A stretch of DNA of 64,000 nucleotides from Octopus vulgaris (taxonomy: Eukaryota). The stretch is taken from positions 5,208,001 to 5,272,000 of the forward strand of contig OX597817.1 in the NCBI GenBank assembly GCA_951406725.2, given 5' to 3'. The translations under genes were made by a program, and so were the position numbers. This document shows, piece after piece, positions 2,243 to 60,580 of the stretch. Every line of letters begins with the position of its first letter. Position 1 is the stretch's first letter. The notes beneath the pieces were generated by a model. It did no database searches, was not told the origin of the DNA, and saw only the letters and a list, made by a program, of their open reading frames with translations.

Positions 2243-5200
2243 AATTGAGATAGGGGTTGTAAATGCAACCCTCCATGGGATAACATATATCCAATCTACC
2301 GCTAGTTAAGTACCCAACAAAGTTAATACATAAATGTTAATAATTGCGATGCAATTAATTCACTTATTCCATTTGAAACGAATATGATTATTCATTCGAA
2401 CAGCGGACGAAATGCAAACAACCTTGGATGCAAGCTGTGCTATAGAACCTTTGCAACTGAGAGAGGCTTGAAGATACATCAGGGAAAGACTTGTGAGAAG
2501 AGGACAGAGCAGTGTGGATCGTCAGATCGTAAAACACGTGGCAAATCATCCCCGGACTCAAACCACAGCGGATCGATAAATGCTACAGCACAGAACTCTT
2601 CACGTGAAGAAACTACAAGTCATGAAACTGGTGCATCGGATAATACTCAGAGGAAACCGAGGGTTTTGTGGCCTGCTGCTAATGAGAAAGTGAAATATAA
2701 AGAGTTTGAAAACAAGGTTTGTCGGACTCTTTATAAAATGACAGGCTCTACAGTGGAAAAACTGGGAAAATTATCAAGCTCAATATACGATGTAGCAAGA
2801 GATTTATTTGGAATAAAAGAGAATATCCGACTAGAGAAAGGAAAGTGTGGACCAAGCAGGAGGATCAGAAAAATGCAGCAGTTGAGGAAGGAAAAGTCCG
2901 ACTTAAGAAAGAGATGGAGATGTGCTGCACTAGATGAGAAACCTGGCCTTGCGTTGCTGTATAACGATTTGAAGAGGAAATGTCGTTATGTGCAACGACA
3001 TATTCGCCGATATGAGCGTCGAAAAGAAAGTAAAAGGACTCGAGGGCAGTTTCTGAAGGACCCGTACGGGTTTACTAAGAAGCTGTTCACTGAGCCGAAG
3101 AGTGGTACTTTATCGTGCACTAAAGAAGAATTGGATGCTCATATCAAGGAAACCTACAGCGATCCGCACCGTAATCAGCCGCTGCCATCTCTACATGGGC
3201 TAAATCATCTCTCAGGACCTGATATCGAATTCCAGATTGGGGACATCAGGGAGAGAGAGGTGAATGACTTCGTAAGAAAAGCTAGAGCGAAGAGTGCCCC
3301 AGGAGGTGATGGCGTCTCATATAAAGTCTACAAATACTGCAATCGTCTGCGAAAGAAGCTCTTCGTCCTAATCCGACAACTGTGGCGCGAGGAGACTATA
3401 GTAGAGGATTGGTGTAAGGCAGAAGGTATATACCTGCCGAAAGAGGCCAATGCAAAGACCATAAAACAGTTTAGGCCGATATCCTTATTGAATGTGGAAG
3501 GCAAGATCTTTATGGGAATTCTGTCGAGGAGAACAGTGACATATTTACAGAGTAACGGATATGTTGATGAATCTGTTCAAAAGGCCGGAATCCCCGGGAT
3601 CCCTGGATGCGTTGAACACTGTTTTTCGATTTGGAAAGCGATTCAGGATGCCAAACAGAACAAGAAAAGTCTGAACGTGGTATGGCTCGACCTAGCTAAC
3701 GCGTATGGTTCAGTGCCACACAAATTACTAATAACAGCCATGGACCACTTCCACATTCCTGACAAAGTGATCAAAATAATGAGGATGTACTATGAAAGTT
3801 TCGAAATGAGGTTTACAACTGGAAGTTTTACAACAAATTGGCACCGATTGGAGGTTGGCATTGCTGCTGGCTGTACAATATCTGTCACGTGGTTTATCTT
3901 AGTCATGGAGTTGATTTTGAAAGGTGTAGATTTTTCGGAACAAATCGCCCATGTACAATCGCCTAAGAAAGCCTTCATGGATGACGTGACACTTCTAGCT
4001 ACAGATAAACAAATCATGCAGAATGCCCTTTTGAGATTAGACGAACGTGTAAGGTGGTCAAGGATGCGATTTAGAGCAAAAAAGTCGCGTAGTCTGACAT
4101 TTGTTAAGGGAGTGCAGAAAGAATTTAAATTTCGAATATCGGAAGAAAGCATTCCAACAGTCAAGGAAGAGCCCGCCAAGAGCTTGGGACGAGTATACGC
4201 TGGAACATTGTCAGATAGAAGTCGTGGGATTGAAATTATGAAACAGGCCGAGGCTGGGTTATCAGCGATTGATGTTTCGAAGTTACCAGGTAAATATAAA
4301 ATTTGGTGCTTGCAGTTCGGCCTGTACCCGCGACTTGCGTGGCCACTTTTAATATACGAAGTAGCATTGTCACGAGTTGAAAAGATCGAACAAAAATGTA
4401 ATGTGTTCATTAGAAAGTGGCTAGGTCTACCTCGTATGTTGAACAGCTCAGCTCTTTATCGTAAAAGAGGTTCGTTGCAGTTACCAATAGCATCAATAGT
4501 CGAAATATATAAGTTGGGGAAGATACGGACGGTCATGATGCTGAGAGAATCGAAGGATATGGAAATCAGGCGTAACCCACCAGAGGTGAAAACAGCCAGG
4601 AAGTGGAAAGCAGAAGCAGAAACTGACAACATCTTGTCTTCTCTTACACACAGAGATATGGTGGGAGCAACGCAGAACCATCGGAAAGGATTTGGTTTTG
4701 GCGCGGATCAGTTCAGACCGTTTGCAAGCATGATGCCGTGTGAACGCAGATCTGTTGTTAGCAACAGCGTCAAAACAAGAGAAGCAGAAAGAAGAGAACT
4801 TCATTTGATCCGATGTGTTCATCAAGGTCAGATGACGAGATGGGAAGAACATGTTGTTGAGAGGAAGATAAGTTGGGATGAGATGTGGAAGTGGACAACA
4901 TCTCGGCTGAGTTTCCTGATTCGTTCATCTTATGATGTTTTGCCATCACCTACGAATCTAGTAAGATGGAACGTCTTAGAGAATGACGTCTGCAAATGTG
5001 GAAAAGTCGGTACACTAAAACATATTCTTTCCAACTGTTCGTTAGCATTGAACAGGTACACATGGAGGCACAACTTGGTCCTTAAGGTTATCTTCAATGC
5101 TATAAAGAATCAAATTCATCTCAACAACACTGAGGAAAAATCGTTAAAAGTACCATCAAGAGAGTTCATTACCTTCGTGCGACCAGGTCAGCAGATCCGT

Positions 5201-5848
5201 TTCAAGAAGAAGACCAAGAAGCTTCCTGAGAAAAATGAAAAGTGGAACGACTATTGGGAGGTAACTGCAGATTTACCTGGGTGCCAGGTTTTCTTTCCCA
5301 TCCCAGTTTCGAAAAAACCAGATATTTTGATGTGGTGTGAAAGAAAGAAAGTTTTAAATATAGTCGAGCTAACGGTTCCTCACGAAGATAATATGGACGC
5401 CGCTCGAGCTCGAAAATTAAACCGTTATGAAAACCTCCTCGAGGAATATGAAGACGCAGGCTGGAAAGCGGAACATTTTCCTATCGAAGTCGGATGTAGA
5501 GGGTTTGTAGGACACAGCGTGAGACGACTGTTGTTATCGTTAGGCCTAACTCATCGTAAAGTCAATACCACCATGACTGATATCCAATCTACAGTGGAGA
5601 AGGCTAGCCACTGGATTTGGTTAAAAAGAGACGATGAGCGATGGCTAGAAGTATATTGAGTTCATCATAACCAGCTGATCTAGCAAGCGGGGCCTCATAT
5701 CAGTGAGGGGGGCCGGTGCGCATTGATGCCGTCGAGAGGTAGGCCCCGAAACGGCGCGCATTCTCTCCTGATGACCCCATACACTTGCTAGCTTCCGATA
5801 TACGGAGCTTTTAACTGGTAGCACTTGCATGTGCAAGTTGTTTGCAAG
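2241..5848 (+). mobile_element. Apparently full-length HERO-type retrotransposon with short structured UTRs
   Basis: Non-repetitive sequence starts right after (TA)n at 2240. ORF 2384-5659, GC-rich structured 3' UTR, then ATATATAT resumes at 5849. Ends are inferred. Confidence 0.8.
2384..5659 (+). CDS. Single ORF of a HERO-clade (R2-group) non-LTR retrotransposon: zinc finger + reverse transcriptase + CCHC knuckle + restriction-like endonuclease
   Basis: Uninterrupted 1091 aa. N-terminal CKLC..F..ERGLKIHQGKTC finger; RT motifs FRPISLLN, QKAG, WLDLANAYGSV, GIAAGC, AFMDD; CKC..TLKHILSNC knuckle; RYTWRHN; KPD..ELTVP REL core; C-terminal EKASHWIWLKR. AFMDD and ELTVP are typical of HERO. Confidence 0.93.
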   Translation: MIIHSNSGRNANNLGCKLCYRTFATERGLKIHQGKTCEKRTEQCGSSDRKTRGKSSPDSNHSGSINATAQNSSREETTSHETGASDNTQRKPRVLWPAANEKVKYKEFENKVCRTLYKMTGSTVEKLGKLSSSIYDVARDLFGIKENIRLEKGKCGPSRRIRKMQQLRKEKSDLRKRWRCAALDEKPGLALLYNDLKRKCRYVQRHIRRYERRKESKRTRGQFLKDPYGFTKKLFTEPKSGTLSCTKEELDAHIKETYSDPHRNQPLPSLHGLNHLSGPDIEFQIGDIREREVNDFVRKARAKSAPGGDGVSYKVYKYCNRLRKKLFVLIRQLWREETIVEDWCKAEGIYLPKEANAKTIKQFRPISLLNVEGKIFMGILSRRTVTYLQSNGYVDESVQKAGIPGIPGCVEHCFSIWKAIQDAKQNKKSLNVVWLDLANAYGSVPHKLLITAMDHFHIPDKVIKIMRMYYESFEMRFTTGSFTTNWHRLEVGIAAGCTISVTWFILVMELILKGVDFSEQIAHVQSPKKAFMDDVTLLATDKQIMQNALLRLDERVRWSRMRFRAKKSRSLTFVKGVQKEFKFRISEESIPTVKEEPAKSLGRVYAGTLSDRSRGIEIMKQAEAGLSAIDVSKLPGKYKIWCLQFGLYPRLAWPLLIYEVALSRVEKIEQKCNVFIRKWLGLPRMLNSSALYRKRGSLQLPIASIVEIYKLGKIRTVMMLRESKDMEIRRNPPEVKTARKWKAEAETDNILSSLTHRDMVGATQNHRKGFGFGADQFRPFASMMPCERRSVVSNSVKTREAERRELHLIRCVHQGQMTRWEEHVVERKISWDEMWKWTTSRLSFLIRSSYDVLPSPTNLVRWNVLENDVCKCGKVGTLKHILSNCSLALNRYTWRHNLVLKVIFNAIKNQIHLNNTEEKSLKVPSREFITFVRPGQQIRFKKKTKKLPEKNEKWNDYWEVTADLPGCQVFFPIPVSKKPDILMWCERKKVLNIVELTVPHEDNMDAARARKLNRYENLLEEYEDAGWKAEHFPIEVGCRGFVGHSVRRLLLSLGLTHRKVNTTMTDIQSTVEKASHWIWLKRDDERWLEVY

Positions 5849-6883
5849 ATATATATTTACATGCACACACTTTATCAGTCACTTAGCGTTGGTAATTTAG
5901 TTTAATCAACTTCTAATTTCTCGAATAGAATACTGCCTTGTTTTCGAAGCCATACATTGTAAGCTGTGTGAATTTTAGGGCTGGGTCTTATCGCTGTTTG
6001 TCATATCATATGCTGGACGACTAATGCATTACGCGATGGCAAAAATTCAGTTACGTTAAAAACTAATCGTACGAGGAATATGTTCACGCCCAATGTAGTA
6101 ACGTATCTTGTTCAGAAACAATCCAGCGAAGCCATTACATAGTTATTCGGTTTTCGAAGGTTCCTCAATCAAATCACCCTTAAATTACTCAGTACCGCTT
6201 TAAAAGGAGAAGAGCACTATGCATAACCCAGTCCTATATATACCACTAGAAAGAAAGACTCAGTGGCCACAAATGGAATATATTTGATCAGAAGTTTCTT
6301 CTTTTAGAGATTAATAACAACAATGAAAATGTATTTATAAATTGCAATAATAGTAAGATGTTTCTTTCTCAATATTGGTACTTTTCTGTCCCTTAATTTG
6401 CTGTTAAGTGACCAGTTTCTTTCTCTCAAGGAATCGAGCTTACGTAAAGCGTAAAATCTACAAGTTCATACTCTGTTTAAAATAATAAAACCATATATTT
6501 TGCTAAATTCTCACTTAATCCTAGATTTTAACTTGAATAACCGTTGTAAAAATAAATTTGACCACAAGGTGACCTTGTACATATTTTTTCTGGTCAGAAA
6601 CAGAATTAAACAGATAAATTCGGAAGAGCGCTCATTCAGATAAATGAGAAGATAATTCGTTTCATTGCTCAATTAAAACAGTATCACTATTCAAGTAATT
6701 TGGTTAAATGAATCAGACTTCAGTAAAACCAGAATAGTGGTCAGTAAATGGATATTTAATCGTATAACCGCTACTCCTCCAAATTTTTATAGAAAAATCA
6801 ATTTGATAGGAAAATGATGAATGTAAAGTTGAATGTATAGCAATTTTTCTGTAGTTTTAGTATTCCAGTTTTGTTGCTATTTT

Positions 6884-46069: not shown

Positions 46070-47216
46070 CTGAGTAGCATAGTTAGTATAGTACTCAGCA
46101 AATTTGAGTAATTTCCTCAATTTAGTTTGTACATTTTACTATACGATAAAAATTCGATATAGAAACATTAGTAAGAATCATATGAGACATAATTTTTAAT
46201 GGAAGAAAACACGTTTTTCATTTAAATGATAAAGAGAAAAAAGTGGGCAAGAATAAAATAAGTCAGATGAATAAATAAAATTAAATTTCTGAAACTGAAA
46301 TAGAGTTTAAAGGAAAACTGCAAGGAAGAACCTATTGATGGTAAATATATTTGATGAATATAAGTTGATACAGTGATATCTATAAACATATCATGTCTAT
46401 TTCATGAGTAAGTTAATTTAATGTTAGATATAGAAAGGTGGATCGAAACTGCCTTAAAAAGCGGATAGGTGTTGATGCACGTAGATGTGTTTCGTCTGTC
46501 AGTAGTGGTAAGATTTACTTACGCAATAAGTGTTTGTGGAAATGTCTACATTTTCCGAAAATCTCTGAACTAGCGTTTAAGCAGAAGATATAATTAAGTA
46601 CAATATCAAGCGTGAATATCTTTCGGCTGTGCTATTAAAGCAACAGTTATTTCTTTCCTTGTAATAACTCAGCCATTTCATAGTGTTGTAGTTAATAGTT
46701 TTCGTAGCTAACTGCAACTAAAATATCTTACCATATTAATCTTGTTCATGTTTTTATAAACGTAATAATCAATACAATATACTTGCTTCAGCTTCCCTTT
46801 GGTGTTGTCAATCTACATTTTTTGTACAATCTCGAAATCTGGCTTTGGTGAATTAACTCTGTTTTATAAATTACAACTTCTGAATTACTTGACTTTATCT
46901 ATGTCTATATACTAATATCATTAATGTAAAATAGGCTTCACTTTTGGAGGAATTTGTTATTTAGGCTGTCTAACTGAATCTTAATTGAAGAGAGTGCATA
47001 TTAGAAAAATAATTCTATATTTAGGTTAGCGGGAAAGTGATTTGCAATTAGATCTAGATAAGTTTTGGAGATATTAAATATAGAATTTGTTAAAAGTATT
47101 TAATCAACGCGAGAATGATTCACACCTCTTTTAAATTAAGCATTATGGAATTTGGTGGTATAAGTAATTTTAGTTTTCGAATCCAGAAATCTGTGTACGC
47201 GTGTGTGTATGTGTGC

Positions 47217-48399: not shown

Positions 48400-50021
48400 T
48401 GATGGTCGTGAACCCCCTCCATTTGATAGATCGGTACCTCCAATGCTTCGATTGGTCATCACGCGGGATGAAGTCAAACGTGTTATTCAAGGCCTCGATG
48501 TCAACAAGGGTCACGGCCCTGACGGCATACACCCACGGGTTATCAAAGCGTTGGCTCCGGTCATCTGCGAACCCTTAACACGACTATTCAATATGTCATT
48601 GGCGACGGGTGTTATACCTGCAGACTGGAGAACAGCGATAATCTGCCCAATTTTCAAGAAAGGGAGCCGCGAAGACCCGCTTAACTACCGACCGGTTTCC
48701 CTTACATCAATAATCAGCAAGATGTTCGAAACCATCCTTAAGTAAAGTATGATGCTCCACCTCCTAAACACAGCCTCGATCACTGATTCCCAACACGGCT
48801 TCGTGCCGAAGAGATCATGCTTGACCAACTTACTAGTAATGGAAGAATTGGTGACGCGCATCCTCGATGATAGTGATGCTGTTGACATCGTTTTATTGGA
48901 CTTTGCCAAAGCTTTTGACTCGGTAAACCACCGCCTACTACTTGTCAAGCTTCAAGCATATAGTTTCCATCCGGATATTGTACGATAGGTTGGTGCCTTC
49001 CTCTCAGATCGCTCCTTCCAAGTTCAAGTTAATGGTTCGCGGTCCGACGTCTCCAGTGCGAGCAGTGGCGTGCCTCAAGGTTCAGTGCTTGGGCCCTTGT
49101 TGTTCTTAGTCTTCATAAATGACTTGCCCGACGACCTCACGCAGCATACCCTTCTATTTGCCGACGATATCAAACTGGTCGCTCCTCGCGGTAGTATAGA
49201 GGATCTTCGTCGATGCCTCCACCAAATTTGGAAGTGGTCTAACGATTGGGACCTGTGTCTGAACGTGTCAAAGAGCTGTCATCTGCCTGTCGGCTCTACT
49301 CCTGCAACTCAACTTGATTTCGAGCCGGGTTGTCTGCTGCTGGAGAGGACCGATCAGGTAAAGGACCTGGGTATCTTGGTGGATTCCTCCTTTTCGCCTT
49401 CGGCCCAGTGCGTCCATGCTGCCAACAAAGCGCGCGGAATTCTGTTTTTGATTCGACGGTCATTCGGAATGCTCACAGCAGCCATATTCCTACCACTCTA
49501 TGTCACGCTGGTGAGACACATATTGGAGTATGGGATTCAAGCCTCTTCTCCTTATCTCCTCAAAGACATACAGCATCTCGAAAGAGTCCAGAGGCTGGCT
49601 ACCCGCATGGTTCATGGTCTCAAACATTTGTCCTACGAAGAAAGGCTGAGGACGCTCGACCTTTATTCTCTTGAAAAACGCCGCCGCCGTGGTGATCTCA
49701 TTCTCGCCCACAACATCATAAGCGGGAAGTGTAACCTCTCGAAAGAGCTGTTCTTCACTCCTGCTCCGGAGCGTCGGCTGTGGGGTCATTCCGAAAAGCT
49801 CTACCTGCGACGATTTCATCTCAATCGAAGGAGAGGAGCTTTCTCCGTCCGGGTTGCGGATCCGTGGAACAAGCTGCCAGACGAGATGGTGAAGATGCCG
49901 ACGACCGCTTTGTTCAAAGCCTCCCTGGACCTCAAGTGGCCTGAACTCTTTACATGAACACCACCCTGTACTTAACTCCATGTCCCCCTACATGGCCTTG
50001 CTATTTGCTTTTGAGCCAAAT

Positions 50022-59539: not shown

Positions 59540-59795
59540 GCATATATATATATGTATATATATATGCATACACACACACATACACACACATATACATACA
59601 CACATACATACATGCATATGTGTGTGTGTGTGCGTGACAATAATTCAAATGAACAGATAAAGACCTTTAATGTATAAAATATATACATGTACCAGTATAC
59701 ATATAAAAAGATTTTGTCCTCGGTAAAGATAACGTTGAGTAAGCTCAAATCATTTAGTGTTTTCTATACCAAGATTCCCTGGTTCTGTGTGTGTA

Positions 59796-60410
59796 AGTAT
59801 GTATGTATGTATGTATGTATGTATGTATGTATGTATGTATGTATGCATGCATGTGTATGTATGTATGTATGTATGTATGTATGTATGTATGTATGTATGT
59901 ATGTATGTATGTATGTATGTACGTACGTATGTATGTATGTATGTATGTATGTATGTATGTATGTACGTATGTATGTACGTATGTATGTATGTATGTAAGT
60001 ATGTATGTACGTACGTACGTATGTATGTATGTATGTATGTATGTATGTATGTATGTACGTATGTATGTATGTATGTATGTATGTATGTACGTATGTATGT
60101 ATGTATGTACGTATGTATGTACGTATGTATGTATGTATGTATGTATGTATGTATGTACGTATGTATGTATGTATGTATGTATGTACGTATGTATGTATGT
60201 ATGTACGTATGTATGTATGTATGTATGTATGTATGTATGTATGTATGTACGTATGTATGTATGTATGTATGTATGTATGTATGTATGTACGTACGTACGT
60301 ATGTATGTATGTATGTATGTATGTATGTATGTATGTATGTATGTATGTACGTATGTATGTATGTATGTATGTATGTATGTATGTATGCATGTATGTATTT
60401 ATGTATGTAT
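59796..60410. repeat. (ATGT)n microsatellite with interspersed ACGT variants
   Basis: Direct reading. Confidence 0.98.
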
Positions 60411-60580
60411 AACGTATCTAAGAAGAGATGACAAGATAATTGGAATGAACGAATAAACGAATTGATAGACGAAAAGAATGGGGGGAAAAAGACGAAACAT
60501 TCGAAAGAAATTCAGAGTAAAAGAAACAAATTTAGAAGCAAATACAGAAAGACGCGTGGAAAGAAAGACATTGTATAAGG

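Follow-up and report, generated by a model that had tools for sequence, protein, structure and literature searches.

Hammerhead ribozymes whose conserved blocks follow one another in the order S, G and C were published as type SGC (HRIMA-1) by Eckert et al. in 2023 (PMC10085705), and, according to passages of that paper, they cleave in vitro at 0.007–0.19 per min, and their stems I and II are connected by a 3-nt linker and, at the distal ends, by a helix. The same passages carry the assumption that block C is not splittable, with CUGANGA running straight into stem II. The term type-SGC was found in Eckert et al. alone in the literature searched (most subscription journals and Repbase Reports lay outside that search); within the same scope no paper linking HERO retrotransposons to hammerheads was found, and HERO is unmentioned in the accessible portion of a 2026 retrozyme preprint (10.64898/2026.07.22.740005).

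Among mobile elements, self-cleaving ribozymes are known from R2 and from Penelope-like elements. The 5' ribozyme of R2 belongs to the HDV-like class. R2 is a retrotransposon with a restriction-like endonuclease (RLE) and a self-cleaving ribozyme (excerpts of PMC13580325 and PMC7650587), as is predicted here for HERO; in R2 the ribozyme sits at the 5' end and cuts the element from rRNA, whereas in HERO a hammerhead core lies in the 3' UTR. Upstream sequence that R2 retains can help to prime second-strand synthesis (PMC13580325, in part), a benefit related to the one proposed here for HERO. For the Penelope-like elements it has been proposed that hammerheads process the RNA, that the products are ligated to circles and that reverse transcription runs beyond one unit (excerpts of PMC4209133), and internal initiation of reverse transcription has been shown for one of them (excerpts of PMC11167929); for the Penelope-like PAc, the latter excerpts report ribozyme mutants without effect on in vitro insertion and no reads ending at the cut site. 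Ligation is far faster in full-length than in minimal hammerheads (PMC6155905, in part). As to HERO itself, part of PMC4640811 describes the elements as mostly non-specific, with some families targeting microsatellites.

We describe here a HERO-like element of Octopus vulgaris in a window of 64 kb, by which we mean the whole stretch of DNA analysed. The explanation that we prefer combines a conserved hammerhead core, a four-way fold, self-cleavage and a role in making unit-length RNA, and to this combination as a whole we give a probability of roughly 48%.

The HERO-like element

The element is recognised by one long open frame with a reverse transcriptase (RT) domain:

2327..5659, forward strand: open frame of a HERO-like non-LTR retrotransposon (RVT_1, E 7.7e-19)

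Over its 1110 codons this frame holds, in order, an N-terminal C2H2-like motif, the RT, a CCHC knuckle and the RLE, and a single ORF with RT and a C-terminal CCHC plus PD-(D/E)xK endonuclease is the architecture of HERO. By eye, the RT is much closer to the HEROTn, HERO-1_BF and HERO-1_SP rows than to the Utopia, R5 and R4 rows of an alignment in the supplement of PMC7650587 (a source available in part), and the named homologues of the ORF come from fish, lancelet and molluscs. The copy is probably 5'-truncated, with its true 5' junction near 2372, and in contigs of public sequencing runs loose contig ends fall before 2372. Positions 2234–2370 hold a separate repeat of very high copy number that adjoins an (AT)n run, and the HERO copy appears to have inserted into or beside it; no clear target-site duplication was found around the copy, and no second HERO copy in the 64 kb. 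One relative (L070) ends at a microsatellite, in agreement with the published description of HERO. Elsewhere in the window, an open frame of 322 codons spans 48989–49957, and 59739–60511, probably simple-repeat sequence, is open in five frames.

The hammerhead core in the 3' UTR

The motif occupies 5680–5791, that is, 21–132 nt 3' of the ORF stop. An earlier note on this DNA had quoted the core blocks GCCGUC-GAGAG (5728–5738), GAAACGGC (5748–5755) and CUCUC-CUGAUGA (5763–5774), together with 8-mers at 5680–5687, 5688–5695 and 5784–5791, and all of them were found in place. The window has a single occurrence of the S-G-C pattern, defined as UH, GAAA and CUGANGA in this order with both stem I and stem III as perfect 5-bp helices; 100 base-shuffled windows had none. 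Its parts, as we read them, are the following:

5680..5692, forward strand: strand X (5680–5687 and 5689–5692), which closes the fold by pairing with X'
5693..5708, forward strand: hairpin H of 6 bp, the third arm of the four-way junction, flush with X on one side and with Y on the other
5709..5714, forward strand: strand Y, the 5' strand of stem II, with G5709 in place of G10.1
5715..5721, forward strand: strand Z, whose helix with 5756–5762 joins the distal ends of stems I and II
5728..5738, forward strand: block S, with the 5' strand of stem III, U16.1 (5732), C17 (5733) and a stem I strand
5739..5741, forward strand: 3-nt linker from stem I to stem II, as in type SGC (passages of PMC10085705)
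5742..5755, forward strand: block G, with the 3' strand of stem II, C11.1 (5747), G12-A13-A14-A15.1 (5748–5751) and the 3' strand of stem III
5756..5762, forward strand: strand Z', which pairs with Z
5763..5774, forward strand: block C minus its stem II strand, that is, a stem I strand and CUGAUGA (C3 at 5768 to A9 at 5774)
5775..5791, forward strand: strand X' (5775–5778 and 5784–5791), partner of X and not of the strand before GAAA
5792..5852, forward strand: 3' tail with small hairpins; the element's 3' end lies at about 5849–5852

The window helices are thus X (5680–5687 and 5689–5692 with 5784–5791 and 5775–5778), stem II (5709–5714/5742–5747), Z (5715–5721/5756–5762), stem III (5728–5732/5751–5755) and stem I (5734–5738/5763–5767), and the predicted cut falls between 5733 and 5734, after C5733. 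At the gathering score Rfam gave no match in the window and in 40 of the 85 related loci described below, and for 5600–5900 no ribozyme match up to E 10.

Conservation of the core

Relatives were fetched by protein only, with an alignment of the C-terminal protein region as the query and the RNA motif unused, which gave 85 loci: from metagenomes the best 80 of 486, and from genome bins five. The core is present in 46 of the 85, of which 43 were found by a geometric descriptor that left the two letters at the cut free and allowed one core mismatch, and three (L027, L048 and L081) by a looser parse anchored on GAAA and CUGANGA only. The earlier note's hammerhead core in non-circularly permuted order is upheld, and it is conserved in HERO 3' UTRs; the order itself is real, and its novelty falls away, since passages of PMC10085705 had already published it as type SGC. 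That fish HERO 3' UTRs show the same motif order is supported only indirectly, in that the motif-bearing loci L005, L006, L011, L014, L017, L027 and L038 group with fish proteins on a quick tree.

At the cut, the 43 descriptor hits read UC in 18 cases, UU in 13 and UA in 12, with no other spacer, and a core mismatch was used in five; as controls, 150,889 nt of ORF sense sequence and 218,062 nt of antisense gave 0 hits each. The looser parse, run over 86 UTRs (the 85 loci and the window), found stems I and III in 40, with a spacer of UC, UA or UU in 36, another in 4 and UG in none; L007 was mis-parsed there, and its spacer is UA. In the main clade the descriptor motif is present in 38 of the 50 loci with at least 300 nt of UTR and absent from 12, some of them visibly decayed, and in the deep clade, as defined on the quick tree, it is present in 1 of 22 loci and absent from 21. 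The descriptor's one extra match in the window, near 46236, is A/T-rich and has one mismatch.

Within the core, U16.1 is invariant, and the A15.1-U16.1 UA pair is found in 39 of 39 sequences (four registers set by hand). Position 7 is free (U in 27, C in 9, A in 7 and G in 3 of 46 sequences), and the motif-bearing elements compared have a median protein identity of 41%. In hammerheads, G is disfavoured at position 17. Here N17 is C, A or U and never G, with at least 17 changes on a 43-row tree that leaves out L015, L048, L070 and L085, giving P ~0.001 under equal rates. L005 and L006, which are related and both tandem, depart from the core by a U at position 3, with G8 retained. HERO-like loci also occur in bacterial and archaeal genome bins (L081–L085, three with the motif), and these are most likely eukaryotic DNA binned in. 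In viral contigs no HERO relatives were found, and the 11 pattern hits there look by eye like chance, in mostly coding-like sequence with no block S evident. For eight motif-less loci, Rfam at relaxed E-values gave no known ribozyme in place of the motif.

Covariation and the probable four-way fold

Covariation was scored on a MAFFT alignment of 32 sequences that was not fitted to the structure and left out the near-duplicates L015, L021, L040 and L056 and the poorly parsed L041, L048, L051 and L081. For the structure named above, 81.3% of cells are paired against 58.5% after shuffling, there are 144 double changes instead of 44, and covariation scores 0.602 where shuffles give 0.178 and slid controls 0.196 at most. 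Kinship, which the shuffles do not take into account, is partly dealt with by the slid control and by the large number of independent pair types. Stem I is 88.8% paired with covariation at 5 of 5 pairs, stem II 91.9% with double changes at 4 of 5, and stem III 86.5% with double changes at 5 of 6, so that the covariation of stems I and III for which the earlier note had suggested looking is present, and stem II has it as well. Helix Z is poorly registered by MAFFT (47.8% paired), and tested per sequence against shuffles it reaches p≤0.05 in 27 of 32 loci.

That the motif is a chance product of a G+C-rich UTR would be in keeping with the nested minimum-free-energy fold of 5660–5830, which is unremarkable (z −0.49) in a folding tool that draws no pseudoknots and is blind to this part of the structure; unconstrained folding does recover the nested part (X, H, Z and III) in the window, L012 and L023. 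Conservation, covariation and the empty controls speak against chance, the covariation and the 0 control hits refute it, and we regard its probability as practically nil.

The strand after CUGANGA does not form stem II with the strand before GAAA: this canonical pairing has 0 bp in 33 of 39 sequences and 2 bp at most, and the two strands pair no better within a locus than between loci (0.442 vs. 0.439). A canonical in-cis stem II of type SGC was rejected, with ≤2 bp in all 39, and the non-canonical stem II noticed earlier in the window is common to the relatives. Instead, X pairs with the strand after A9 and Y with the strand before G12, with hairpin H between X and Y. The first base of Y and the pyrimidine before GAAA make the 10.1-11.1 pair (GC in 35 and GU in 4 of 39), so that the R10.1-Y11.1 closing pair of stem II is there, with a purine that comes from the upstream strand. 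A flush X, H, Y parse was obtained in 30 of 40 sequences, 25 of them without an unpaired junction base, and any parse at all in 88 of 1200 shuffles; 10 of the 40 had no four-way parse, and those of L014, L015 and L019 were matched by their own shuffles.

From these alignments it is very probable that the core stacks on stem II in a four-way junction, with the strands exchanged at A9/G10.1; block C is split at this step because the upstream strand supplies G10.1 through the flush junction. We infer that the fold has the circular order of SGC, CSG and GCS, opened within block C.

A dimer or a conformational switch, with stem II formed between two molecules or through 5688–5695, was among the solutions that the earlier note put forward, and we judge it very improbable. 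The window sequence alone does permit an 8-bp helix of 5688–5695 with 5741–5748, and Penelope-like elements have dimeric hammerheads (excerpts of PMC4209133). This helix is not conserved, however: it has at least 8 bp in 2 of 25 sequences and ≤5 bp in the other 23. An identical second molecule cannot give a canonical stem II either, because X' and Y' are not complementary, and every helix can form within one strand, including stem II in cis (5709–5714/5742–5747). Two further readings of the earlier note change with the four-way fold: the CCCC after CUGAUGA, thought to face another CCCC, pairs with 5689–5692, and the hairpin 5680–5687/5784–5791, thought to compete for CUGAUGA, is the conserved outer closing helix X, which leaves CUGAUGA unpaired.

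Natural hammerheads tolerate an extra unpaired base at the A9/G10.1 step (excerpts of PMC4209133), and passages of PMC3088659 gave no precedent for whole helices inserted there; a helix junction at this place may slow or kill the core. On sequence grounds we nevertheless consider the 3' UTR core likely to be catalytically active. The contrary reading is a silent, hammerhead-derived structure that serves as a 3' UTR recognition element for the RT/RLE protein. Proteins of the R2 type bind their template at the corresponding place of the 3' UTR. With the motif at that same place, with inserted copies that are intact (see below) and with an A9/G10.1 break that has no precedent in the published passages, silence has arguments on its side, and yet a full catalytic set, a free N7 and the lack of G17 at a median identity of 41% are what catalysis predicts, and binding of a protein alone would not obviously exclude just G17. 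We therefore think a silent structure quite unlikely.

Copy ends, tandem copies and the proposed role

Genomic copies of the window family, seen in contigs of four public runs, diverge about 116 nt past the predicted cut: in X1 and X5 there are loose contig ends after 5849 or 5852, and X11 contig 15 matches until 5849. The copies diverge past the cut, at 5849–5852, and therefore the inserted template contains an intact ribozyme; the template is not simply the cleaved 5' product, because the copies keep the part 3' of the cut. In run X15 the depth over the last 400 nt (3'-only copies) exceeds that of the body about 40-fold, as summed contig depth, which is not copy number. In all four runs window positions 5450–5850 are far deeper than the element body, an excess to be expected from abundant 3'-only copies or from a ribozyme-carrying family of SINE type.

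A next HERO ORF N-terminus follows head-to-tail on the same strand in 13 of the 48 loci with at least 600 nt downstream. Six junctions have 24–26 nt from TGTAT to a CCAGTGAC-like motif, without poly(A) or microsatellite, and in this group the solo ends lie at TGTAT or immediately beyond it. Among the loci with long flanks, tandem arrangement is only weakly associated with the motif: it was found in 12 of 34 loci that have the motif vs. 1 of 14 that lack it (Fisher p 0.07, uncorrected for kinship), which leaves 22 motif loci as non-tandem. L066 has a tandem copy but no motif, and L031 and L039 have 5'-like sequence after a motif-less UTR. In the window's own family no tandem junction occurs among the matches listed. 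Such junctions could also arise by template jumping of the RT or by self-targeting.

The role that we propose is a unit-length processing like that of the Penelope-like elements, with re-joining of the ends or a spared 3' site, and we put its chances at close to even. The behaviour of the PAc mutants in vitro, and the lack of reads ending at the PAc cut site, speak against it. Tandem or read-through HERO transcripts would be cut to unit length by the 3' UTR hammerhead, and the two ends of each RNA, kept together by pairing, would be re-joined before reverse transcription. The cut halves would be held by stems II, III, Z and X, which amount to about 30 bp in the window; consequently, after cuts in two consecutive ribozymes, the ends of a unit RNA would assemble again into one complete ribozyme. 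The rebuilt ribozyme could then ligate the unit RNA to a circle, or else one site, the 3' one, would be left uncut, and reverse transcription, starting downstream of the ribozyme, would copy it intact and make or extend tandem arrays. The fuller version, in which an active hammerhead of a seventh topology, re-ligated circles and rolling-circle target-primed reverse transcription all operate in HERO, we consider unlikely; if true, it would mean that a clade of RLE retrotransposons moves by means of ribozyme-made circular RNA.

The same fold, equally active, might instead work as a self-limiting timer, cleavage severing the tail where reverse transcription starts unless forestalled by binding of the element's own protein to the 3' UTR; cis preference would thereby be enforced, copy number limited, and the tandems would be a by-product. 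We regard this as doubtful. It suits the position of the cut, 3' of the ORF and upstream of the end with which the element integrates, the slowness of the known SGC ribozymes (passages of PMC10085705) and the 22 non-tandem loci among the 34, and the repeated 5'-end CCAGTGAC motif could be an internal promoter, which would make 5' processing unnecessary. It leaves unexplained, on the other hand, the fixed-length, tail-less junctions common to divergent families, and the ~40-fold depth of 3'-only copies in X15 also counts against it, although 5' truncation explains this depth as well.

As regards cleavage, one contig (L029, 1258–1279) ends exactly after the predicted N17, with the 20-nt spacing from Y to U16 of its family. 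This end may belong to a cleaved RNA or to copies ending at the cut, and we take it as a weak hint only, because 14 contigs end ≤250 nt from the ORF and the 3' half of L029 is absent.

Relation to known hammerheads and significance

In its block order, its full set of core nucleotides, its linker of about 3 nt and its pseudoknotted core, the HERO motif is like type SGC (here and below, as far as passages of PMC10085705 describe these types), and it has the helix on the distal ends of stems I and II, which in HERO joins stem III directly, as in some SGC examples. It differs in that the strand after CUGANGA makes stem II in SGC and the separate helix X in HERO, where stem II takes its 5' strand from upstream of block S, by way of hairpin H and the four-way junction. 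As in type CSG, the 5' strand of stem II (Y in HERO) continues into block S and the circular block order is the same, but CSG has an intact block C at its 5' end, whereas in HERO CUGANGA is 3' and the RNA ends lie inside block C. Unlike in types I–III and in SGC, CSG and GCS, where A9 leads into the stem II strand with no more than 1–2 nt inserted, block C of HERO is interrupted after A9. In the sequence tests the HERO motif behaves throughout like a type-SGC hammerhead except for the uninterrupted block C, and the most fitting class for it is a new topological variant, with HERO as its new host.

Like the hammerheads of Penelope-like elements and non-LTR retrozymes, it lies in the repeat between head-to-tail copies (excerpts of PMC4209133 and PMC11167929), and with them it shares the proposed unit-length processing and circles and a start of reverse transcription away from the cut site. 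These hammerheads are, according to those excerpts, type I or minimal, often dimeric, and belong to GIY-YIG elements, in contrast with the monomeric, permuted motif of the RLE element HERO.

If this reading is true, HERO would break the rule that CUGANGA runs straight into stem II and add a further topology to the six permutations put forward in 2023, and searches built on an uninterrupted block C would miss the HERO motif. Non-circularly permuted hammerheads would also move from anonymous metatranscriptome contigs to a widespread clade of eukaryotic retrotransposons. A ribozyme in a LINE 3' UTR, upstream of the integration end, raises the question of how HERO makes its template and bears on the role of the Penelope-like hammerheads, and RNA engineering would gain a new scaffold in a hammerhead whose ends leave through a four-way junction.

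Other possible RNA elements near the predicted ribozyme

Motif-less 3' UTRs (L066, L031, L039, L026 and L035) gave no Rfam ribozyme match and may contain other structured RNA; L066 still abuts a next copy, as do L031 and L039 judging by the 5' motif, and the L026 UTR has a repeated complementary motif. In L007, L009, L028, L033, L042 and L046, tRNA-like stretches with A-box- and B-box-like words lie between the stop codon and the ribozyme; they may act as internal Pol III promoters of a short RNA that carries the ribozyme, and ARAGORN called no tRNA in 15 loci, these stretches included. A hairpin-like motif (C-run, AGAGTC, G-run, ATG) is found 320–960 nt past the ORF end in L005, L006, L012, L019, L023, L031, L037 and L039, conserved and near the ORF start of the next copy, and is possibly a translation element or a 5' RNA element. 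Finally, L012, L019, L022, L023, L028, L034, L037, L050 and L051 have TGAC..GGAAAGAC repeat units 61–94 nt after C3, and these short repeated units, which open HERO 5' regions behind the word CCAGT, are candidates for an internal Pol II promoter.
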